In this document: piece by piece, positions 18,797 to 35,812 of the stretch
Layout of the letters: the number at the start of each line of letters is the position of its first letter
Position numbering within the stretch: position 1 is the first letter of the stretch
NCBI GenBank assembly: GCA_964447335.1
Contig: CAYUSA010000009.1
Coordinates: 3,345 to 67,344, forward strand
DNA from: an uncultured Actinomycetes bacterium
GTDB lineage: Bacteria; Actinomycetota; UBA4738; HRBIN12
Direction of reading: 5' to 3'
DNA: 64,000 nt
Made by a program: the position numbers and the translations under genes
The notes under the pieces: model-generated
What the model was told of the DNA's origin: nothing
The model's input: only the letters and a program-made list of their open reading frames with translations
Database searches by the model: none

Positions 18797-18999
18797 CCCG
18801 GCCCTCGCGCCTGTGAATCCAGCTGACGCGCGGTCCGCACAACCGTGTGTCGTTCCGGTACCACGGGCTCGCCGACCGGCGATCGACCAGGGCCACCTGG
18901 GCGGTGGGCGGGCTGCTCGACGACGCGAGAGCGGCATTGCGATCGTCCCCAGCCGCGGCACGATCGACGCCTCTTCTTGCCCTTCAATACAATCGCGAC

Positions 19000-21360
19000 A
19001 TGGCGAACCTCGGTCCTCTGGAGGCTTCTACCTGTAAGGACTACGTCGTCCCACTGCTCAAGGCGGCAGGCTGGTCGGATGAGCAGATCGTCGAGCAGTT
19101 CCCCGTGACCGACGGCCGGATTATCCCCGGAGTGAAGGGGCACCGCAGAGAGAAGCCGCTACGCGCCGACTATCTCTTGGAGTATCGGCCGGGCCTTGCG
19201 GTCGCGGTCGTCGAAGCCAAGCGCGAGTACAAGCTTCCGACGGACGGCCTGCAGCAGGGAAAGCGCTACGCGCAGATGCTCGATCTGCCGCTCGCCTACT
19301 CGACGAACGGCAAGGGCATCGTCGAACACGACTTCGACACAGGTGCGGAAACGAACCCTGCCAAGTTCCCGACCCCACAAGAAGCCTGGGACAGATATCG
19401 CTCTTACCAGGGGATCACTCCAGCGGCTGAGGAGATCCTCACGCTGCCGTTCAACCGCGATCTTCGGCGTCCGGACGGTGCCGTCAAGGAGCCCCGCTAC
19501 TACCAGCGGGTCGCGATCGACCGTGTCCACGCATCGGTGGTGGCCGGGAACAAGCGCGCCTTGCTCACCATGGCGACCGGCACCGGCAAGACCTTCGTTG
19601 CCATGCAGATCGTATGGAAGCTTTGGCGACATGCCTGGCCCGAAGGCCGCAAGCCGCGCGTCCTCTATCTCGCGGACCGGAACATCCTCGTGGACCAACC
19701 GATCCAGCGTGAATTCCTGCCCGTCTTCGGCAACGCGATCTGGAAGATCAAGGGCGCGGCCAAGACGAGCCGCGAGATCTACTTCGCCCTGTATCAGTCG
19801 CTCGCGGATTCCGGCGACAGTCTCGGGATCTTCCGCGACTATCCGGCGGACTACTTCGATCTCGTCGTCGTCGATGAGTGTCACCGCGGCAGCGCCAAGG
19901 ACGACTCGAGCTGGCGGGCGATCCTGGATCACTTCGCTCCGGCCACGCAGCTGGGTCTCACAGCCACGCCCAAACGCGACGACAACGTCGATACGTACGC
20001 CTACTTCGGCGACCCGCTCTACACCTACTCACTTGCGCAGGGGATCGAAGACGGCTTCCTCGCTCCCTACCGGGTCCGGCGTGTCGTCCTTAGCGCGGAT
20101 GCGTACGGATGGAGTCCTGATGAAGGGCAGCTCGACCTCTTCGGCAAGGAGATCCCTGCCGGCCTCTACGAAACGCGAGACTTCGAACGCGTCGTGTCCC
20201 TGCTAACCCGCACTCAGGCGGCGGCGCATCACCTCACCGAGTACATGAAGCGAACCGACCGGATGGCGAAGACCGTTGTGTTCTGCGTCGATCAGGAACA
20301 CGCGGACCAGATGCGAGCGGCGCTTCACAAGGAGAATGAGGATCTTGCAAGGCAGCACCCGAACTACGTTGCCCGCATCGTCTCCGACGAAGGCGATGTC
20401 GGCGATGAGCTCCTCGGGTATTTCGCAGATCCGGAATCCGAAGAGCCGGTCATCGTCACGACGTCGCGTTTGCTCTCCACCGGTGTGGACATGCCCGCCG
20501 TCAAGAACATCGTGCTGTTCAAGCCGATCGGCTCGATCGTCGACTTCAAGCAGATCATCGGCCGCGGGACGCGCATCTACGAGGACGTCGACAAGCTCAG
20601 CTTCGAGATCATCGACTACTCGGGGGCAACGCGGCTGTTCGAAGACCCGGAGTTCGACGGTCCTGCCGAGCGCGTCGCGACCGAAGAGATCGATGAGAAC
20701 GGCGACGTTCAGGTAGAGCTGGTTGTAGCCGAACCCGAGCAGCCGTTCGGGGAACCCGGCGAACTGGATGAAGAAGAGGTCGCAGAAGAGGCCCGCGAGA
20801 AGCTCTACGTTGGCGACGCGCCCGTATACCTCGTGGCCGAGGGATACCGGATCCTCGACCCCGCCACCGGCAAGCTGAAGCTCGTCGAGTACGCCGACTA
20901 CGTGAAGGACCAAGTACGGATCCTGTTCGAGGGTCATGCCGAACTTCTGGGACGCTGGCGAACGCACGAGGGACGGGAAGAGATCAAGGAGCTGCTGGCC
21001 GAGCGAGGAGTGTTCCTTCAAGAGGTGGCGGAGCAATCGCACCTGGAGGAGCTCGACCCGCTCGATGTTCTTGCCCATCTGGCCTGGAACAGCCCGGCCG
21101 CGAGCCGGCGGGACCGCGCCCGCAGGGTGCGAAATGCGAACTTCCTCGAAACCTTCCAGCCCCAGGCTCGAGAAGTGCTGGAGCTGCTGCTTGAGAAGTA
21201 CGCGGAGTTCGGTGTCTCGCAGCTCGATGACCTGGAGGTCCTGATGGTCCCGCCGCTGAACGAGCTCGGAACCCCCGTTGAGATCGCCGCCCGGTTCGGC
21301 GGTCCGGCCAAGCTTCAGGAAGCCGTTGACCGCATGGAGCAGCTCCTCTACGCTGCGTGA
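19000..21360 (+). CDS. hsdR: Type I restriction enzyme R subunit
   Basis: PD-(D/E)xK nuclease motif (LRADYLLEYRPGLAVAVVEAKREYK), DEAD-box helicase motifs (TMATGTGKT, DECHR, LTATP) and a C-terminal HsdR domain. I used the internal start MANLG; a TACAAT -10 lies 6 nt upstream. Confidence 0.85.
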   Translation: MANLGPLEASTCKDYVVPLLKAAGWSDEQIVEQFPVTDGRIIPGVKGHRREKPLRADYLLEYRPGLAVAVVEAKREYKLPTDGLQQGKRYAQMLDLPLAYSTNGKGIVEHDFDTGAETNPAKFPTPQEAWDRYRSYQGITPAAEEILTLPFNRDLRRPDGAVKEPRYYQRVAIDRVHASVVAGNKRALLTMATGTGKTFVAMQIVWKLWRHAWPEGRKPRVLYLADRNILVDQPIQREFLPVFGNAIWKIKGAAKTSREIYFALYQSLADSGDSLGIFRDYPADYFDLVVVDECHRGSAKDDSSWRAILDHFAPATQLGLTATPKRDDNVDTYAYFGDPLYTYSLAQGIEDGFLAPYRVRRVVLSADAYGWSPDEGQLDLFGKEIPAGLYETRDFERVVSLLTRTQAAAHHLTEYMKRTDRMAKTVVFCVDQEHADQMRAALHKENEDLARQHPNYVARIVSDEGDVGDELLGYFADPESEEPVIVTTSRLLSTGVDMPAVKNIVLFKPIGSIVDFKQIIGRGTRIYEDVDKLSFEIIDYSGATRLFEDPEFDGPAERVATEEIDENGDVQVELVVAEPEQPFGEPGELDEEEVAEEAREKLYVGDAPVYLVAEGYRILDPATGKLKLVEYADYVKDQVRILFEGHAELLGRWRTHEGREEIKELLAERGVFLQEVAEQSHLEELDPLDVLAHLAWNSPAASRRDRARRVRNANFLETFQPQAREVLELLLEKYAEFGVSQLDDLEVLMVPPLNELGTPVEIAARFGGPAKLQEAVDRMEQLLYAA

Positions 21361-21382
21361 TATGCCTCAGGAGTGCACGAAC

Positions 21383-21450
21383 CTATATCGAATCTATAGT
21401 TCTGCGTAGCCACCTTGTCAGAGAACTAAAGATTCCGTATAGTTACACGC
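21383..21450 (+). promoter_or_regulatory. abiEi promoter/operator: CTATA-N7-TATAG palindrome, then TTGTCA-N17-TATAGT, then a leaderless ATG 7 nt downstream
   Basis: The 90-bp spacer between hsdR and abiEi is AT-rich (~45% GC versus ~70% background). -35 at 21415-21420, -10 at 21438-21443, ATG at 21451. Confidence 0.45.
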
Positions 21451-22050
21451 ATGGCGAACGTACAGGACAGGCGCGAGCTTCGCCGCAAGCTGTTCCAGAT
21501 CGCTGGATATCAGTCCGGTCTCTTCACGGCTGCCCAGGCACGGGACGCCGGCTACTCCTACGCGGCTCAGAAGTACCACGTCGACCACGGGAACTGGGTC
21601 CGGATCGACAGGGGGATCTTCCGCCTGCCCGAGTGGCCGCCCGAGCGGCACGAGGATCTCATCCGATGGGTGCTCTGGAGCGGCGGCAAAGGGGTCATCT
21701 CCCACGACACCGCGCTTTCGGTGTACGACCTCGGCGACGTCGATCCGGTCCGTACGCATCTCACGGTGCCCAAGGGGTTCCGCAAGTCAGCCCCCGGGGT
21801 GGCACTTCACCGCGCAACCCTGCCGAGCGAAGACGTTCAGGGCTTCGAGGGGGTTTCCATCACGACCCCGACGCGCAGCGTCCTCGACGTCGCGGCGGGC
21901 AACCTGGATGCGGACCAACTCGCCTCGGCGGTCGGCGATGCCATCGGGGCAGGGCTGGCGACGAAGAGAGAGCTCCTCCGACGGGCGGATTCCTTCGGCG
22001 CGCACGCGGCACTCCGCATCGAACGCTCACTCATGGACGCTGCTGCGTAG
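21451..22050 (+). CDS. abiEi: AbiEi antitoxin / transcriptional regulator (type IV TA / abortive infection)
   Basis: LFQIAGYQSGLFTAAQARDAGYSYAAQKYHVDHGNWVRIDRGIFRLPEWPP...LIRWVLWSGGKGVISHDTALSVYDL is the AbiEi_4 N-domain with the conserved C-domain. Confidence 0.8.
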   Translation: MANVQDRRELRRKLFQIAGYQSGLFTAAQARDAGYSYAAQKYHVDHGNWVRIDRGIFRLPEWPPERHEDLIRWVLWSGGKGVISHDTALSVYDLGDVDPVRTHLTVPKGFRKSAPGVALHRATLPSEDVQGFEGVSITTPTRSVLDVAAGNLDADQLASAVGDAIGAGLATKRELLRRADSFGAHAALRIERSLMDAAA

Positions 22051-22913
22051 TGGATCGCTACAAGACGCCCGCCGCCTTCCGCGCGGCTCTGGAGGACCGC
22101 CTGAAACAGCGCGCTCCGGACCAGTCCGCACTCGACCGATCCCGCAGGCAAGTCGTGTTCGACCGCATGCTTGCACGCCTGGAACGGGAGACGCCCGGCC
22201 AGTGGGTGGTCAAAGGGGGAACGGCTTTGGAGATCCGTCTGCCGGGCCGGGCGCGCCGCACCAAGGATCTTGACATGGCGACACGTCAAGACACGACGGA
22301 TGGGCTCGAGCTCCGGGGCGACCTCGTTCGGGCACTTGACCCCGACCCCTTCGAGGACTGGTTCGAGTTCAGGGTCGCCGATCCGCAGCAACTGGCCGAC
22401 GACGAGGCCGGTCGCCCCGGTTGGCGGTTCCCCGTGGAGTCGCGCCTAGCGGGTAGGACCTTTGCCAAGGTGAAGATGGACGTCGTTGCACGCATGGACG
22501 AGATCTCGGCAACCGAGAGGGTCACACTACCGGGGCTGTTGGACTTCGCCGGCCTCCCCCCGGTGGAAGTCGAGATCGTTGACAAGAAGCAGCACTTCGC
22601 CGAGAAGCTTCACGCGTACTCGAAGGACTATGGCGATCGCCCGAATACCCGCGTCCGTGACATCGTCGACATGGTGCTGCTGATCGAGGACGGCTTGCAG
22701 CCCGACGCCGATCTGTACGTCGCGGTCGACCATGTGTTCGCCGTGAGGGATACGCATCAGATCCCCGTTGATCTCCCGGACCCGCCACTGGTATGGGAGG
22801 AGCGCTACGAGGAACTCGCACAGGATCTCGATATCAGCCCGAAGACGCTTGATGTGGCCGTTCCGACGGTTCGGAGCTTCTGGGCGGCTGCGGTCGTAGC
22901 AGCGAAGGAGTAG
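22050..22913 (+). CDS. abiEii: AbiEii nucleotidyltransferase toxin (DUF1814)
   Basis: ...QWVVKGGTALEIRLPGRARRTKDLDMAT... is the NTase motif. The GTG start overlaps the abiEi stop (TAGTG). Confidence 0.8.
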   Translation: MDRYKTPAAFRAALEDRLKQRAPDQSALDRSRRQVVFDRMLARLERETPGQWVVKGGTALEIRLPGRARRTKDLDMATRQDTTDGLELRGDLVRALDPDPFEDWFEFRVADPQQLADDEAGRPGWRFPVESRLAGRTFAKVKMDVVARMDEISATERVTLPGLLDFAGLPPVEVEIVDKKQHFAEKLHAYSKDYGDRPNTRVRDIVDMVLLIEDGLQPDADLYVAVDHVFAVRDTHQIPVDLPDPPLVWEERYEELAQDLDISPKTLDVAVPTVRSFWAAAVVAAKE

Positions 22914-22916
22914 ACG

Positions 22917-24410
22917 ATGGCGAAGAAGAAGCAACCAGAGAAGCCGACGACACCGCAGGCGCGACTGGCGTCGGCGATCAAGCGCGCTCGCGACATCATG
23001 CGCAAGGACGCCGGTCTGAACGGGGACACCGACCGCATCCCGCAGCTCGCCTGGCTGCTCTTCCTGAAGGCCTTCGACGCGCAAGAGGCCCAGCGCGAGG
23101 TCACCGACCGCTCGTTCCGGCCTGCCATCGAGGCTCCCTTCCGTTGGCGCGACTGGGCGGCCAACGAGATCGAGGGCCGCACCGGCGAGGCGCTGCTCAC
23201 GTTTGTGAACGGCGAGCTGCTGCCGTACCTGCGAGGACTGACCGGCACCGAAGAGCGCGATCCGCGCGACGTCCTGGCCGCCGTCTTCAAAGAGACCTAC
23301 AACCGGATGCTCTCCGGCTACCTGCTGCGCGATGCCATCGATTGCGTGAACGAGGTCCACTTCGAGTCCTCTGACGACATCCACACGATGGCGTTCCTCT
23401 ACGAGACCATGCTGCGCGAGATGCGGGACGCCGCCGGCGACTCCGGCGAGTTCTACACCCCCAGGCCGGTCATCCGCTTCATCGTCCGGCAGGTCGATCC
23501 GAAGCTCGGCGAGATCATCCTCGACCCCGCTTGCGGGACCGGAGGCTTCCTCGTGGAATCGCTCGAGCACCTGCGACCGAAGGCCAAGAGCGTGGAGCAA
23601 TGGCAGGGGCTGCAGGACGACCTGCGTGGGATCGAGAAGAAGCCGCTGCCCTACCTGCTCGGCATGATGAACCTGCTCCTGCACGAGGTCGAGCAGCCCG
23701 CGATCGTCCGCGACAACGCCCTCGCACACCCGGTCACCGAGATCCGGGAAGCGAGCCGCGTGAACGTCGTCGTCACCAACCCGCCGTTCGGCGGTGAGGA
23801 GGAGAAGAGCATCCAGGCCAACTTCCCGGCCGGAACGCGGGCTGCGGAGACGGCGCTGCTCTTCCTGCAACTCGTCGAGCGCTCCCTTAAGTCCTCCGGC
23901 CGGTGCGGCATGGTCGTGCCCAACGGGCTCCTATTCGGCGACGGAGTCGCCGCGCGCATCAAGGAGCGGCTGATGAAGGAGTGCAACCTCCACACGATCG
24001 TCCGCTTGCCTGAGGGTGTCTTTGCCCCATACACGGACATCGCTTCGAATCTGCTCTTTTTCGAGAAGACCGGGCGCACCAAGGAAGTCTGGTTCTACGA
24101 GATCTTCCCGCCCGAGGGTAAGAAGAAGTACTCGAAGACCCGCCCGATGCCGTTCGAAGCTTTCGCCGAGTGCCAGGCATGGTGGGGTGGAGCAGCTCGA
24201 TCCGGACGAGCGGAGACTAGTCACGCGTGGCGGGTCCCTATCGCCGACCTTGAAGCTAGCGGTTACAACCTCGACCTCAAGAACCCGGATTCGTCCCTTG
24301 ACCTTTCGCACAAACCACCCGGAGAACTCCTCGCTGATCTCACCGAACTGGAACACGAGATCCAAGACCTTCTTACGCAACTCTCCTCTGCGATTCGGGG
24401 GGCAGAATGA
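22917..24410 (+). CDS. hsdM: Type I RM N6-adenine DNA methyltransferase subunit
   Basis: HsdM_N domain (...IPQLAWLLFLKAFD...), SAM motif LDPACGTGGFLV and NPPF catalytic motif (VVVTNPPFGG). An AAGGAG RBS lies upstream. Confidence 0.9.
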   Translation: MAKKKQPEKPTTPQARLASAIKRARDIMRKDAGLNGDTDRIPQLAWLLFLKAFDAQEAQREVTDRSFRPAIEAPFRWRDWAANEIEGRTGEALLTFVNGELLPYLRGLTGTEERDPRDVLAAVFKETYNRMLSGYLLRDAIDCVNEVHFESSDDIHTMAFLYETMLREMRDAAGDSGEFYTPRPVIRFIVRQVDPKLGEIILDPACGTGGFLVESLEHLRPKAKSVEQWQGLQDDLRGIEKKPLPYLLGMMNLLLHEVEQPAIVRDNALAHPVTEIREASRVNVVVTNPPFGGEEEKSIQANFPAGTRAAETALLFLQLVERSLKSSGRCGMVVPNGLLFGDGVAARIKERLMKECNLHTIVRLPEGVFAPYTDIASNLLFFEKTGRTKEVWFYEIFPPEGKKKYSKTRPMPFEAFAECQAWWGGAARSGRAETSHAWRVPIADLEASGYNLDLKNPDSSLDLSHKPPGELLADLTELEHEIQDLLTQLSSAIRGAE

Positions 24411-25609
24411 CTGTCAACGCCGTCTCGGTCGGAGAAGTTGCCACCCTTCACCGGCGGTGGATCAACCCGGATCCTATGACTGAATACATTCAGATTGGCG
24501 TCCGAGGCTTCGGCAGGGGCATCTTCCACTATCCACCGACGCTGGGGATGAACCTGGGACGACTTCGCTTCGCGACGGTCGAGCCGGGCGACCTAGTAGT
24601 GAGCAACATCAAGGCGTGGGAAGGTGCCATAGCTATGGCTGGCGACGGGGACGCGAACTGTATCGCATCCAACCGCTTCCTCACCTATCGAGTTTCAGAC
24701 GAGCGCGCGGACGCTCGTTATCTCCGGTACTTCTTCCTGAGCGAAGCTGGCCTCCGCCTCATTGGAAGGGCTTCACCGGGTTCCGCAGATAGAAATCGCA
24801 CCCTCGCAATCGATCGCTTTGAAGCGCTTGAGGTCCCGCTCGGACCGATTGACGAACAGCGCCGCATCGCCACCCTGCTTGACTCCATCCATTCGCGGAC
24901 TTCCACCGCGGACGCATTCGCAGTGAAGGCCGCCGTTGCCGCCGAGGCTCTGAAATGGGCCGTCACAAGGGATACGTTCGCCGACGTCGATACGAGTCTG
25001 AGCGAAGCCGTAGACATCAACCCGGAGTCGGTGAATCCGGAGAGAGACCTCGACGGGTCGATGTTCACCTACATCGACATCGGGTCGGTAGCCAATGGCA
25101 CGGGCGCGATTGCGACCCCGAAGGTCCTTCCGGTTGCCGAGGCTCCCTCCCGGGCGCGCAAGCGCGTGAGGACGGGTGACGTTCTGGTCGCGACCGTCCG
25201 CCCTAATCTCAAGGGAGTGGCGCTCGTATCGCAGGCACTCGATGGTGCTATCTGTTCGACGGGGTTCGCGGTCCTTAGGCCGAACTCTCGGCTGTCTCCC
25301 GAGTACCTGCTCCTTCAATGCCTGTCAGATGCCGTGACGGAACAGCTTGTCGAAGCCACCCGAGGTGGTCACTATCCTGCGGTCCCGGATAGGAAGCTTC
25401 GAGACGTGAAGATCGCGGTGCCGCCGGCGGACGAGCAGGTTGCCGTTGTTCAACGTCTGGGAGTGCTTCTTCATGAAGTCGGCGAACTCAAGCGGCGAAT
25501 CGGGGAGAGGAACGACCTTCTGCAAGCGCTCCCAAAGTCCATGCTTAACGAGTGCTTCAAAGGCGGAGCCTCCAAGGGACCCGCCGGCGAAGGAAGACCC
25601 CCCCGATGA
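24407..25609 (+). CDS. hsdS: Type I RM specificity subunit with two target-recognition domains
   Basis: Two TRDs separated by the conserved central and terminal coiled-coil repeats (LGPIDEQRRIATLLDSI... / ...VPPADEQVAVVQRLGVLLHEV). The start overlaps the hsdM stop (ATGA). The local GC is lower (~58%). Confidence 0.85.
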   Translation: MTVNAVSVGEVATLHRRWINPDPMTEYIQIGVRGFGRGIFHYPPTLGMNLGRLRFATVEPGDLVVSNIKAWEGAIAMAGDGDANCIASNRFLTYRVSDERADARYLRYFFLSEAGLRLIGRASPGSADRNRTLAIDRFEALEVPLGPIDEQRRIATLLDSIHSRTSTADAFAVKAAVAAEALKWAVTRDTFADVDTSLSEAVDINPESVNPERDLDGSMFTYIDIGSVANGTGAIATPKVLPVAEAPSRARKRVRTGDVLVATVRPNLKGVALVSQALDGAICSTGFAVLRPNSRLSPEYLLLQCLSDAVTEQLVEATRGGHYPAVPDRKLRDVKIAVPPADEQVAVVQRLGVLLHEVGELKRRIGERNDLLQALPKSMLNECFKGGASKGPAGEGRPPR

Positions 25610-26436
25610 TGGAACTGCGGGATGGATTGGGCGCGAGTGATGCCGAGAAGGCCATCCGCGATGTGATCGTTTGGTTCGAGAACCTGTCCGGAGGAGGTAG
25701 GGACGCCCTTGCGCTTCGCGACAGGTATCTGACTGAGGTCGAGCGTGCCGAGTCACAGCTGAGCAACCTGTATCCGGGGCTTGAGTGGATGGGCAGGCTC
25801 TACAGCGAGCGCTACTGGCGCATCCGCGAACTACACGCCGGCAGCCCGCGTCCCTTTCCGCTGATCCAGGACGAAGCTCGCGCGGTGGTCGGCTGGCTCA
25901 ACGACATGAAGCGTTGGCTGGAGGAACTCGCAGCCGAAGAGGCGCTGGTAGATCCGAAGGTTCCTCGCGTCGTGCTGGACACGAACGCCATCATGCACGC
26001 CAAGCCGCTCAGGGACAGCGACTGGCCCGGGGAACTGGGTCGGTCGTCCGTCCGGCTGATCCTGCCGTTGATCGTCATCACCGAACTCGACAACCTCAGG
26101 AACAGCGGGAACGACAAGAAAAGGGCGCGAGCCGCAACACGGCTATCAGAGATGCGTCGTCTGCTAGATGGGAAAGGGCGCGGACCCACGGACGTTCGGA
26201 CCAGAGTAACGCTCGAGGTTCTCGTCACACCCAGAGGGCACCTGCGCCACCAGAACAACGACGAGGAGATACTCGCGAACGTCGAGTCGCTCTCTCGGCG
26301 CCCCGGCGGCGCTCTTGTGCTCGCCACCGACGATTTCTCGATGCAGTTGAGGGCGGAGTCCCGAGGGATGGACGTAGTCGCGATCCCTGAGAATCTGGAG
26401 ATGCCTTTGCAGCCGCCACTCCCCGACGAGAGTTAG
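25606..26436 (+). CDS. Two-domain protein: an all-alpha N-terminal domain (~125 aa, with an Rx4H motif RIRELH) fused to a C-terminal PIN nuclease domain; translationally coupled to hsdS
   Basis: The PIN region reads PRVVLDTNAIMHAKPL...LILPLIVITELDNL...LVLATDDFSMQL...MDVVAIP, carrying the four conserved PIN acidic residues. The ATG at 25606 overlaps the hsdS TGA (ATGATGG). Confidence 0.65.
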   Translation: MMELRDGLGASDAEKAIRDVIVWFENLSGGGRDALALRDRYLTEVERAESQLSNLYPGLEWMGRLYSERYWRIRELHAGSPRPFPLIQDEARAVVGWLNDMKRWLEELAAEEALVDPKVPRVVLDTNAIMHAKPLRDSDWPGELGRSSVRLILPLIVITELDNLRNSGNDKKRARAATRLSEMRRLLDGKGRGPTDVRTRVTLEVLVTPRGHLRHQNNDEEILANVESLSRRPGGALVLATDDFSMQLRAESRGMDVVAIPENLEMPLQPPLPDES

Positions 26437-27137
26437 CGAACCTCGATCGATTCCCAGCTGGCTTCACCCACCACGACGTGTGAGAGAAAGCGCGTGCAGA
26501 CTGCTCGCGACGCTTCAAGCATATGTCGAGTCGCGTCCAAGTCGATATCGCTTGGCTTCGTATCGCCGGAGGGATGGTTGTGGGCGACAGCGAACGCACG
26601 CCCGTCATTGACCAGTACGGCGTTGAGGATCTCGCGCACCGGCACCATCGCCCGGTCGATCGACCCCTCGCTGACGCGCACGACCTTCTTCAGGCGGTTG
26701 GCGCCGTCGCAAACGAGCACGACGACGCGCTCGCGGCGCAGCCCTCTAAGCTCCTGACCAGCGATCCGGGCGACGTCCTCGGGCCCCCGCAGCTGCTCTC
26801 CTACTCCGCCGACGTGTTCGGAGCGCCGACCGAGCGTGAAAGCCGCGATGAGCCCTGCCGCCTTCGCTTCGCCGACACCCGGCCAGCGAGTCAGCTCCTC
26901 CAGCCTGGCCGACGCGATCGCCCGCAGCGAGCCGAACTCGGCAAGCAGCTCGCTTGCCAGATCCAGCGAGCTGACGCCCGGACGTCCGTTCCGGATAACC
27001 AGGGCCAACAGTTCCCGGTCGCTCAACGCCGCCGCGCCGACAGAGACAAGGCGCTCCCTCGGACGTTCCCCGCTGGGGATGCGTGCGATCGTCGTCGGTC
27101 CTGTCATAGGGCGAAGGGTAGTGTTTGGCTCTGACAT
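26433..27137 (-). CDS. RadC-like JAB/MPN-domain protein (UPF0758)
   Basis: ERPRERLVSVGAAALSDRELLALVIRNGRPGVSSLDLASELLAEFGSLRAI...WPGVGEAKAAGLIAAF is the HhH region. FAVAHNHPSGDTKPSDID is the JAMM H-x-H-x(n)-S-x2-D metalloprotease motif. An alternative start is at 27107. Confidence 0.75.
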   Translation of the reverse strand: MSEPNTTLRPMTGPTTIARIPSGERPRERLVSVGAAALSDRELLALVIRNGRPGVSSLDLASELLAEFGSLRAIASARLEELTRWPGVGEAKAAGLIAAFTLGRRSEHVGGVGEQLRGPEDVARIAGQELRGLRRERVVVLVCDGANRLKKVVRVSEGSIDRAMVPVREILNAVLVNDGRAFAVAHNHPSGDTKPSDIDLDATRHMLEASRAVCTRFLSHVVVGEASWESIEVR

Positions 27138-27178
27138 CCGAGTTCGGACCCGAGGAGACGGAGACCATCGGCGACAAC

Positions 27179-28192
27179 ATGAACGGACTGAGTTGGGAGG
27201 AGCTCGACACGGTCTACCTCCCGGAGAGAGACCGGTCATTCACCGAGGACCGCTGCTTCCTGTGCGGGACGCCGCTCACCAAGAAGAACCGCGCCGACGA
27301 GCATGTCTTCCCGAAATGGCTTCAGCATCGGTTCGACCTCTGGAACCAACGGATGGTTCTCCTCAATCGCACGGACATCCCATATCGGAGTGTCAAGATT
27401 CCGTGCTGCTCAGCCTGCAACCACGGACCCTTGGCGGAACTCGAAGCCCGGGTGGCGGAAGCCCATGCGGACGGTTTTGAAGGTTTCGCCCAGCTGGACA
27501 GGCGTGACCTCTTCCTGTGGCTGGCGAAGATCTATTACGGCCTGATGTTCCGAGAGGTGCTGCTCCCGGCCGACAGAACCGATCCAGACTCAGAGCCGAT
27601 CCTCCCCCCGGATATCTTCGAGGAGCTGAGGATGCACCATTTGCTCTTGCAAGCGATCCGCGGCGCCGTGCGGTGGCGCGGGTTCCCTGCCAGCATCTTC
27701 CTGTTCCGATGCCAGGTGCACCCCGATCCGCGATTCGGCTTTGACTATCGTGATTCGTTCTTGGATCCTTTTCTCGCCCTTCGCCTCGGTCAAGTCGCAG
27801 TACTCGCGAATCTTCAGGACTGGGGAGCGATGGAGGACCAAGCGATTGCGGACTTCGAGACGGCGAAGACTCTCGAGCTTCACCCTGTCCAGTTCATCCA
27901 GCTCGCCGCGCAGGCGACGTACATCAGCACATTGTTCAACCGAACGCCAAAACACGTGGTCGTCCTGGACCGGGATGTCCTCGACGTCATCACGCTTCCC
28001 CTTGCAGGCTTCAGTGGCAAGCCCTTGTTCGATTCCTTCGACCCCGCCGAATACGCGGAGTTCTTGGCGGCAGCAATGTTCGTGGGGGTCGACGAGGTGA
28101 TGGGCGGCGACGGAATCAGGACTTACCTTCAGGACGAGCGACGCGCCCCTTTGTTCATCCCATGGGATCCGCAGGGGAACGTCACGCCATGA
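27179..28192 (+). CDS. HNH-endonuclease-domain protein with a ~230-aa C-terminal extension of unknown function
   Basis: CFLCGTPLTKKNRADEHVFPKWLQHRF...IPCCSACNHG is an HNH (McrA-like) C-x2-C...H...N...C-x2-C-N-H signature. GC is noticeably lower (~58-60%). It is transcribed divergently from the RadC-like gene. Confidence 0.6.
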   Translation: MNGLSWEELDTVYLPERDRSFTEDRCFLCGTPLTKKNRADEHVFPKWLQHRFDLWNQRMVLLNRTDIPYRSVKIPCCSACNHGPLAELEARVAEAHADGFEGFAQLDRRDLFLWLAKIYYGLMFREVLLPADRTDPDSEPILPPDIFEELRMHHLLLQAIRGAVRWRGFPASIFLFRCQVHPDPRFGFDYRDSFLDPFLALRLGQVAVLANLQDWGAMEDQAIADFETAKTLELHPVQFIQLAAQATYISTLFNRTPKHVVVLDRDVLDVITLPLAGFSGKPLFDSFDPAEYAEFLAAAMFVGVDEVMGGDGIRTYLQDERRAPLFIPWDPQGNVTP

Positions 28193-34344: not shown

Positions 34345-35812
34345 CACTTCCCATGTCAACCTCACGCTGCTTCGAGGAGGACCGCAGCCCCGTGAAGGGT
34401 CGGGTCGTAGGGGGTGCGGTCCTGCCAGCACCGCCAGATGACCCGCACCCAGGCCCGGGCCAAGATCCGCACGGCATGGGGATGATCGCAGCCGCGAGCG
34501 ATGGCCCGGCGGTAGACCTCAGCGGCTCAGGGCGAGGCGTGCCGGGAGTTGTCGGCGAACGTTGTGATGGCCTCCCGCAGGCGCTTGTTGCAGGCCCACC
34601 GGAAGCTCACGTCGCGATGCTTACCGGAGGTGTGGGTGACCGGGCAGAGCCCTCCCAGCATGGCTACCGAGTCGGGGCAGGGGTACGCTTCCCGGCAGTC
34701 GCCCCACTCGGCGAGCATCTGGGCGGCGTTGATCCGACCGGAGCGTGGCAGCGACGTGAAGACCTCGGCGTCCGGGTGCTCACCAAGGTGGGCGACGACG
34801 GCCCGGTCCAGCTCCTTGATCGAGCGCAGCAGCGATCGCATCACCCGGGCCATGGAGCGCACCGCGTCGGACCGGGCCTCGGCCTCAACGCCCACGATGC
34901 CCTCGGGCGCCGCCCGGAGCCTTGCAAGCAGCTCGGCGGGGGGTCTCCTCCCGCTGTAGCCGGCCTTCTTGAGGAAGCTCTCAAGCCTCAGCTCTCCGAG
35001 GTTGGCGGCCGACTCCGGGGTGGGGTAGCGCTCCAGGAACGACAGGCAGATCTCCGAGGCCACGTCGGCGAAGATCACCGCCGCTCCCGGCCAGAAGGCC
35101 TCCAGGCACGCCCGGAGCTGGTTGCCGAGAGCCACCCGCTGATCCACGAGGTCGTCGCGAGCTCTGACCACCGAGCGAAGGGCCCGGGTCTCATCCGACA
35201 GCGGCTCCAGGCGCCTCAGGCGGTGACCGTCGGTTCGCACCACGTCGGCGATGACGTAGGCATCCCCGGGGTCGGACTTGGCCCCGCTGACGGCGTAGCG
35301 GCGGCGCAGGTCCTTCATGGCGAAGGTCGGGATCAGCACGATCGGGTAGCCGGCCTCCAGGATGGCATCGACCAGCCGTCCCTCGGGGCGCTCGATGCCC
35401 ACGAGGATCTCTCCTTGGCAGGACCAGCGAACGAGGTGCTTGGTGAGCTCGTCGAAGCCCTGTTGCGAGTGGGCCACGGTGGCTCGCCCGCAGATCTTGC
35501 CAGCCGAGTCCACCACGCAGACGTCGTGGGACTCCGCTGCCCAGTCGATGCCGACGAACATCAGACCTCCCTTCGATCGGGGGGCCGTCCCGGTGGCGGA
35601 AGCGCGCGGCGGTTCATTACTGACTGGCGCTCGAGGCGCGTCTTCCCATGGCCGCTCTGCGCTCCCGGGGGCCGGCGGGGGTGGCGGTATCAGACTGGCC
35701 CTCGAGGGGCGATGGCCATTGGCCCTTCCCCCGCCGGTCACCGGGTCGCCGGGAGCATGCACCCGGGAAGCAGCGATTCCTCGGAACCTCACGCAAGAAG
35801 GGTGGACCAGTA
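34345..35812 (-). mobile_element. IS110-family insertion sequence (~1.4 kb) sitting between the creatininase and C-N hydrolase genes
   Basis: The 1468-bp gap between two operon genes holds a single minus-strand IS110-type transposase. IS110 elements lack terminal inverted repeats, so the exact ends are not defined. Confidence 0.6.
34527..35561 (-). CDS. IS110-family transposase (DEDD)
   Basis: MFVGIDWAAESHDVCVVDSAGK...GIERPEG...KSDPGDAYVIADV...(DEDD_Tnp_IS110), with C-terminal ...LTSLPGIG-like SLPRSGRINAAQMLAEWGD.... GGAGG RBS 6 nt upstream. Confidence 0.85.
   Translation of the reverse strand: MFVGIDWAAESHDVCVVDSAGKICGRATVAHSQQGFDELTKHLVRWSCQGEILVGIERPEGRLVDAILEAGYPIVLIPTFAMKDLRRRYAVSGAKSDPGDAYVIADVVRTDGHRLRRLEPLSDETRALRSVVRARDDLVDQRVALGNQLRACLEAFWPGAAVIFADVASEICLSFLERYPTPESAANLGELRLESFLKKAGYSGRRPPAELLARLRAAPEGIVGVEAEARSDAVRSMARVMRSLLRSIKELDRAVVAHLGEHPDAEVFTSLPRSGRINAAQMLAEWGDCREAYPCPDSVAMLGGLCPVTHTSGKHRDVSFRWACNKRLREAITTFADNSRHASP

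Follow-up and report, generated by a model that had tools for sequence, protein, structure and literature searches.

A PIN_4 nuclease gene behind hsdS in an actinomycete type I restriction-modification cassette: probable passenger of a variable slot

A stretch of 64,000 nucleotides from an uncultured Actinomycetes bacterium (assembly GCA_964447335.1, contig CAYUSA010000009.1, positions 3,345 to 67,344; hereafter the window) carries a type I restriction-modification (RM) cassette in which the gene of a 276-amino-acid (aa) PIN-family protein follows directly on hsdS and is itself followed by a convergent radC. This arrangement raises the question of whether the PIN-family gene is a working part of the RM system or a gene that travels with it. 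An initial annotation, made from the window sequence, had suggested the former, namely a nuclease translationally coupled to hsdS and possibly wired to the RM complex. The analysis presented here instead favors, with a probability of roughly 0.6, a self-contained mobile nuclease gene that is carried as a passenger in a variable slot of the cassette and is not a built-in RM component. Coordinates of all features are collected in Table 1.

Architecture of the PIN-family protein

The open reading frame (ORF) was accepted as a real gene on the basis of its full-length conservation in hundreds of sequence clusters and its codon-position GC of 0.68/0.45/0.77, which is of the coding type. The strings VVLDTNAIMH, VITELDNL, ATDDFSMQ, and RIRELH, singled out in the initial annotation, were all located in it. 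The C-terminal part of the protein matched the Pfam domain PIN_4 (PF13638) with 55.1 bits (cutoff 21.9), and the protein ends 18 residues past this domain. In an alignment of 47 members, most of them 25-45% identical to the window protein and three close relatives 50-65% identical, the residues D125, E160, D219, and D243 were invariant, and they correspond to the canonical PIN acidic tetrad. The PIN domain is hence complete, as had been proposed.

An AlphaFold2 model of the protein, computed with 47 homologues as input, reached a predicted local distance difference test (pLDDT) score of 93 and a predicted template modeling (pTM) score of 0.83. The model displayed the alpha/beta/alpha fold of PIN domains and, packed onto it, helices at residues 10-29, 34-55, 62-74, and 83-114, in agreement with the all-alpha N-terminal domain expected from the sequence. 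A helical bundle fused to a PIN_4 domain with an intact four-acid metal-binding site is therefore present. No Pfam match was obtained for residues 1-125 even at E<=10. Within the bundle, E90 was invariant, and Y41, E49, R69, and I73 were nearly so (alignment A7); across the family, W71, I73, R74, and most of all E90 were conserved.

The invariant acidic tetrad makes an active metal-dependent nuclease the natural reading of the protein. Its best match in a profile search of PDB sequences was EST1A (E 1.4e-6), also named SMG6, which cleaves single-stranded RNA with Mn2+ (PMC5499597), and RNA is by this analogy the likely substrate. The protein is thus probably a metal-dependent nuclease that acts on RNA. 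The PIN_4 nucleases SMG6/EST1A, Nmd4, and the PIN domain of PhoH2 nevertheless differ from it in several respects: the window protein has no PhoH ATPase and no eukaryotic nonsense-mediated decay context, and it carries a family-specific N-terminal four-helix bundle. Its NCBIfam match was PhoH2, at 21 bits and thus far below the cutoff of 680, over the PIN part only, and the combination of PIN_4 with a PhoH ATPase/helicase that characterizes PhoH2 was not found. Among the PADLOC 2.0 defence models, no family was matched at E<=0.01.

A second nuclease activity had also been hinted at, since the RIRELH string (R72-I-R-E-L-H77) forms an Rx4H arrangement reminiscent of HEPN ribonucleases. The protein would then be a dual nuclease with an active HEPN RNase as its N-terminal domain. 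The motif exists in the window protein, and HEPN domains are likewise four-helix bundles; this topology, however, is common to many unrelated families. The positions of R72 and H77 are occupied by H and D in P0003, a relative about 63-64% identical to the window protein, and both are variable across the family (alignments A2 and A5). Moreover, the N-terminal domain matched HEPN neither by sequence profile nor by fold, and the comparison left it as a generic four-helix bundle. A HEPN identity of the domain was rejected on these grounds, which makes a dual nuclease of this kind hardly credible.

Family spread and genomic context

When 1.84 billion cluster representatives (clusters at 50% identity) were scanned exhaustively with HMMER, 3883 matches were returned at E<=1e-3, 1596 at E<=1e-10, and 245 at E<=1e-30. 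Almost every match was about 270 aa long and aligned from end to end. Judged from the matches at E<=1e-30, the family appears to comprise at least 245 such clusters, mostly from Actinomycetota. The five relatives returned by a single-protein word-index search had suggested a rare family, a notion that was overturned by the HMMER scan.

Additionally, one genome per species was scanned, where 55 loci were identified and 49 of them (L010-L058) matched the window protein beyond its PIN domain. These were mostly from the Solirubrobacterales, Conexibacter, and Acidimicrobiia, with a single representative from Streptomyces canus. Five Streptomyces and Arthrobacter plasmids also encoded family members, annotated merely as 'PIN domain-containing protein', the name under which family members appear in RefSeq. 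No family member was matched in phage genomes, and viral contigs gave PIN-only matches in which the full architecture was not found. A description of a family with a four-helix bundle and PIN_4 was not found in the literature and libraries searched. Members of about 270 aa with a four-helix bundle and a PIN_4 domain of the SMG6/PhoH2 type thus form a large, uncharacterized, and mainly actinobacterial family.

Two variations were noted within the family. A long-form subfamily of about 485-545 aa (P0053, P0061, P0075, P0098, P0108, and P0130) carries a C-terminal extension of about 250 aa. The extensions, in about six members, are homologous to one another; they had no Pfam match, and a search for them as separate genes, beside other members and within the window, gave as its sole match L061 (L061:9962-11260), which is itself fused. 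The precomputed Pfam annotation of P0166 and P0099 lists PF26425.1 beside PIN_4, and PF26425 may cover part of the family, possibly as a model of the N-terminal domain.

Linkage to RM systems was searched for by tblastn with the window HsdR, HsdM, HsdS, RadC, AbiEi, and AbiEii as queries, in loci with up to 10 kb of flanking sequence. None of the 49 genome loci contained a match to any of the six proteins within this distance. The same search picked up a methyltransferase of 29% identity elsewhere, and its sensitivity is therefore considered adequate. RM genes were likewise not found around the family members on two plasmids and on four additional metagenome contigs. In the four contigs, the neighbors were helix-turn-helix (HTH) genes, serine recombinases, and ORFans. 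On plasmids, one member adjoins a phage-type integrase, and another lies near a zeta toxin and AbiV.

Gene calls for the neighbors in these loci were approximate, as they came from a simple caller based on the GC content of third codon positions (GC3). A tyrosine integrase was present within 6 kb or less in 11 loci and a TrwC relaxase in four, and DDE transposases and large serine recombinases were also observed near family members. Cro/CI-type HTH_3 genes occurred in seven of about 47 loci, and neither their position nor their strand was consistent. The 122 immediate neighbors included VapC-type PIN proteins (two), DUF4145 (two), Abi_alpha, SIR2, LmuB, and PDC-M30B/M41B, as well as a few type II or III RM genes. 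In S. canus (NZ_CP188184.1, L058:8892-9647), the end of a DUF4145 gene overlaps the start of the PIN-family gene by a single base.

A conserved partner or antitoxin was not identified by neighbor clustering, by BLAST of the downstream genes on the same strand, or by profile comparison of two flanking ORFs of 280 aa. The family members are thus solitary genes in variable regions that resemble mobile elements, where Abi, zeta-toxin, Lamassu, or RM genes occur as occasional neighbors. Their solitary state distinguishes them from VapBC, where a small adjacent antitoxin is conserved; in addition, the window protein belongs to PIN_4 and not to PF01850, and it is about twice the size owing to its fused N-terminal domain.

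The missing partner could itself be explained if the N-terminal bundle were a fused, cis-acting antitoxin that sits on the PIN active site, so that the protein would be a single-chain addiction module stabilizing its carrier island or plasmid, which in the window would be the RM-AbiE cassette. The mobile-element and plasmid contexts are consistent with this account, as is the modeled pTM of the full-length protein, which would indicate a rigid packing of both domains. Matelska et al. also described RM-linked PIN genes without antitoxins, 'suggesting a different mechanism of regulation' (PMC5499597). On the other hand, a protease-labile linker is not evident, and invariant residues of the N-terminal domain such as E90 would be equally suited to substrate binding. 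This account is compatible with a mobile passenger nuclease, and is by itself considered unlikely.

The slot between hsdS and radC

To what extent the PIN-family gene belongs to the cassette was assessed from the side of the RM genes. With the HsdM of the window as query, 80 loci (L065-L144; 60-77% identity) were identified in soil, freshwater, and marine metagenomes, and 54 of them were informative past hsdS. The order hsdR-abiEi-abiEii-hsdM-hsdS was found in most of the 80 loci, with the AbiE pair at the position between hsdR and hsdM in most relatives of the cassette. While these flanks stayed conserved, the hsdS genes were only 28-65% identical between relatives.

The content behind hsdS varied. 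In 41 of the 54 informative loci, radC on the minus strand abuts or overlaps the hsdS stop without a PIN gene (39 identified by script, and L071 and L072 by inspection), and radC is thus the usual direct neighbor of hsdS in this cassette. One locus has the gene of an SDH-type ClpP-like protease between hsdS and radC (L088:5819-6958, minus strand), one has a PIN-family gene (L073), and the remaining 11 have other genes, including those for DUF3800, a methyltransferase-domain protein of 664 aa, DUF4268 (twice), and HTH_17. The start of the gene for the 664-aa protein overlaps the hsdS stop. Beyond L088, these cargo genes lie at L141:9719-10732 (+), L144:9660-11651 (+), L119:9768-10556 (-), L114:3656-4009 (-), and L096:9813-10331 (+). 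The loci L073 and L074 are an informative pair, as their DNA is 88% identical from hsdR through the end of hsdM and then diverges completely, with the PIN gene in L073 only. Such differences in content among relatives indicate that the slot after hsdS is variable, and that the PIN-family gene of the window is one of its occupants. No paper was found that describes a fixed association of RadC with a type I RM and AbiE module.

The linkage to hsdS reaches a limited distance into the family. In the closest relatives, P0002 (66% identity) and P0003, hsdS is followed after 6 nt and 4 nt, respectively, by the PIN-family gene and then by a convergent, overlapping radC. The adjacency to hsdS hence holds in close homologues at 63-66% identity. 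It does not extend to P0004 (51% identity) or P0005 (39% identity), where hsdS is not adjacent, and the observation that the initial annotation had named as one that would make the gene a chance neighbor, homologues away from hsdS, largely applies beyond the closest clade. In L002, the order hsdS-PIN-radC is retained even though its HsdS is only 28% identical to that of the window. Because the gene still follows hsdS with almost no spacing and overlaps radC at its 3' end at such distances, the arrangement is regarded as stable and not as a very recent accident. The only other hsdS-linked member, in L073, encodes a full-length protein 35% identical to the window protein, lies 283 nt 3' of hsdS in a cassette of the same type, and is apparently an independent case. 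L073 has no radC, and a 128-aa ORF without a Pfam match (L073:10752-11135, plus strand) overlaps the stop of its PIN gene.

The overlap of the ATG at 25606 with the hsdS stop, on which the proposed coupling was based, was borne out by reading of the sequence. An alternative in-frame start at ATG 25609 would form TGATG; as the relatives start with MEL, either of these two codons may be the real start. A Shine-Dalgarno-like GAAGGAAG lies 10-16 nt 5' of the start. The gene is thus packed into the hsdMS operon, but the exact ATGA overlap is not distinctive. The same overlap joins hsdM and hsdS (24407-24410), abiEi and abiEii overlap by 1 nt, and in the loci L001 and L002 of the closest relatives the ATGA is replaced by the short gaps given above. 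The conserved feature of the clade is therefore a tight operon spacing and not the ATGA overlap itself. A promoter and terminator scan of 22700-27400 yielded nothing informative with the sigma-70 consensus used, which is ill-suited to Actinomycetota.

The stable clade and L073 also bear on a functional link to the RM enzyme. By the precedent of PrrC/EcoprrI, the classic RM-linked and RM-silenced anticodon nuclease (PMC1484252), the type I RM enzyme might keep the PIN protein silent until a phage anti-restriction protein inactivates the enzyme; the freed PIN protein would then cut RNA and abort the infection. The location of its gene inside or beside a type I RM locus is shared with the RNases PrrC and RloC (PMC1484252, PMC3458546). 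The tight coupling to hsdS maintained in the clade, the second and independent-looking member 3' of hsdS in L073, and the abortive-infection module (AbiE) already present in the cassette would all fit such a guard. In contrast, prrC is always linked to RM (PMC3458546), while the family of the window protein almost never is and in this respect resembles RloC, described as 'rarely linked'. The protein also differs in its architecture, as PrrC combines an ABC-ATPase with an anticodon nuclease. The lack of RM genes near the members in genome loci, metagenome contigs, and plasmids, the many informative cassettes that function without a PIN gene, and the conservation of the PIN protein while HsdS diverges to 28% identity further argue against this account, which is considered rather unlikely. 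In a narrower form, only the hsdS-linked clade and, as a separate event, L073 would have recruited the protein in a PrrC-like manner: it would be co-translated with HsdS, kept inactive on the HsdM2S core by way of its N-terminal domain, and set free as an RNase upon phage anti-restriction or restriction alleviation. This form is considered decidedly unlikely. If a PrrC-like role were true, the protein would be without precedent as a PIN-based RM guard, and the wider family could be a set of modular 'guard' effectors, which would be the sole real surprise among the readings.

A housekeeping function was weighed as well, in view of the automatic name 'rRNA-processing protein FCF1' assigned by the Joint Genome Institute (JGI). 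This name stems from a generic COG transfer. The patchy distribution of the family, its variable and mobile contexts including plasmids, and the close cassette relatives without the gene argue against an RNA-processing role in the cell's routine. Composition points in the same direction: from hsdR to the 355-aa ORF that lies beyond radC (18847-28192), GC3 is 0.69-0.84, which is island-like next to the 0.89-0.93 of the carbamate-kinase-like and GntR genes in the flanks. A housekeeping nuclease is accordingly highly improbable. The GC3 drop also suggests that the whole block, including radC and the 355-aa ORF, was horizontally acquired.

The evidence on context is most consistent with the passenger nuclease introduced at the outset, and the suggestion of a nuclease wired to the RM complex was not supported by it. 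An ancestor of the window, P0002, and P0003 lineage would have acquired the gene in the space between hsdS and radC, and the gene would now be read through from the hsdMS operon. Translational coupling to hsdS would then be an outcome of insertion into a compact operon and not evidence for a shared complex. By analogy with SMG6, Nmd4, and the PhoH2 PIN domains, the protein may be a Mg2+/Mn2+-dependent endoribonuclease on single-stranded RNA; its catalysis, its regulation by the N-terminal domain, and its biological role are extrapolated from the PIN subfamily and the context. It would not depend on the RM enzyme for its function and could be toxin-like, contribute to abortive infection, or maintain the element that carries it, with transcription and mobility both borrowed from the defence cassette.

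Several points weigh against the passenger nuclease. The adjacency to hsdS and the overlap with radC persist in the 63-66% relatives despite the divergence of HsdS, and the member located after hsdS in L073 hints at recurrent capture. The genome sample, which consisted of species representatives found with two peptide patterns, is biased to Solirubrobacterales and Acidimicrobiia. Furthermore, a control of the nuclease by the N-terminal domain, whether through recognition of a substrate or partner or through autoinhibition, is purely conjectural.

Relation to described cases and other features of the locus

The initial annotation knew of no described type I RM accessory of this architecture; PIN-like nucleases coupled to type I RM subunits had, however, been reported in 2017. 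In that survey, Matelska et al. described a transcriptional coupling of PIN-like genes to those of type I RM subunits; some of these PIN-like genes had no antitoxin, and they were usually unconserved between close relatives (PMC5499597). The window gene is alike in its coupling to hsdM and hsdS and in an arrangement that is not conserved between relatives. It differs in that the reported cases are mostly toxins of VapC-type toxin-antitoxin systems, while the window protein fuses a helical domain to PIN_4 and belongs to a family that the survey did not single out.

If the window gene is indeed a mobile passenger, it would be a further case of an established pattern, in which type I RM loci serve as landing pads for toxin or defence cargo, and the gene itself would add little. 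The value of the locus would lie in flagging a sizeable uncharacterized actinobacterial family on plasmids and integrative elements. Additionally, the conserved hsdR-abiE-hsdMS/radC cassette with its defined slot would provide a convenient natural system for the question of whether slot cargo and the RM enzyme cooperate.

Table 1. Positions of the cassette genes, the PIN-family gene, its domains, and adjacent features in the window.
Feature	Position	Strand	Basis or remark
hsdR, type I restriction subunit	18847..21360	+	Pfam ResIII, EcoEI_R_C, Helicase_C
abiEi	21451..22050	+	Pfam AbiEi_4; PADLOC AbiEi 1e-68
abiEii	22050..22913	+	Pfam AbiEii; PADLOC AbiEii 7e-79
hsdM, type I methyltransferase	22917..24410	+	Pfam N6_Mtase 2e-62, HsdM_N
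hsdS, type I specificity subunit	24407..25609	+	Pfam Methylase_S; NCBIfam type I S subunit below cutoff
ATGA start/stop overlap of hsdS and PIN-family gene	25606..25609	+	Sequence reading; in-frame ATG 25606-25608 with hsdS TGA
hsdS stop TGA	25607-25609	+	Sequence reading
PIN-family gene (276 aa)	25606..26436	+	ORF reading, PIN_4 match, full-length homologues, AlphaFold2 model
N-terminal helical up-down bundle (residues 1-121)	25606..25968	+	AlphaFold2 model, conserved residues
PIN_4 domain (residues 122-258)	25969..26379	+	Pfam; acidic residues D125, E160, D219, D243
radC (UPF0758_N + HhH + JAB)	26433..27107/27239	-	Pfam, NCBIfam RadC
355-aa ORF, divergent from radC	27125..28192	+	End of low-GC3 island

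The 3' end of the convergent radC overlaps the stop of the PIN-family gene by 4 nt, and the radC call in L007 is 224 aa long. The 355-aa ORF had no sequence match in Pfam, PADLOC, NCBIfam, or the PDB, and the contigs in which it was seen all belong to the source organism; its motifs include two Cys pairs (FLCGTPL..., CCSACNHG) and EHVFPKW. About 8 kb 3' of the cassette, beyond a block of GntR, ABC-transporter, RraA-like, and creatininase genes, the window encodes a transposase of the insertion sequence family IS110 (DEDD_Tnp_IS110/Transposase_20) on the minus strand at about 34527-35561, as derived from L007:15109-16143.

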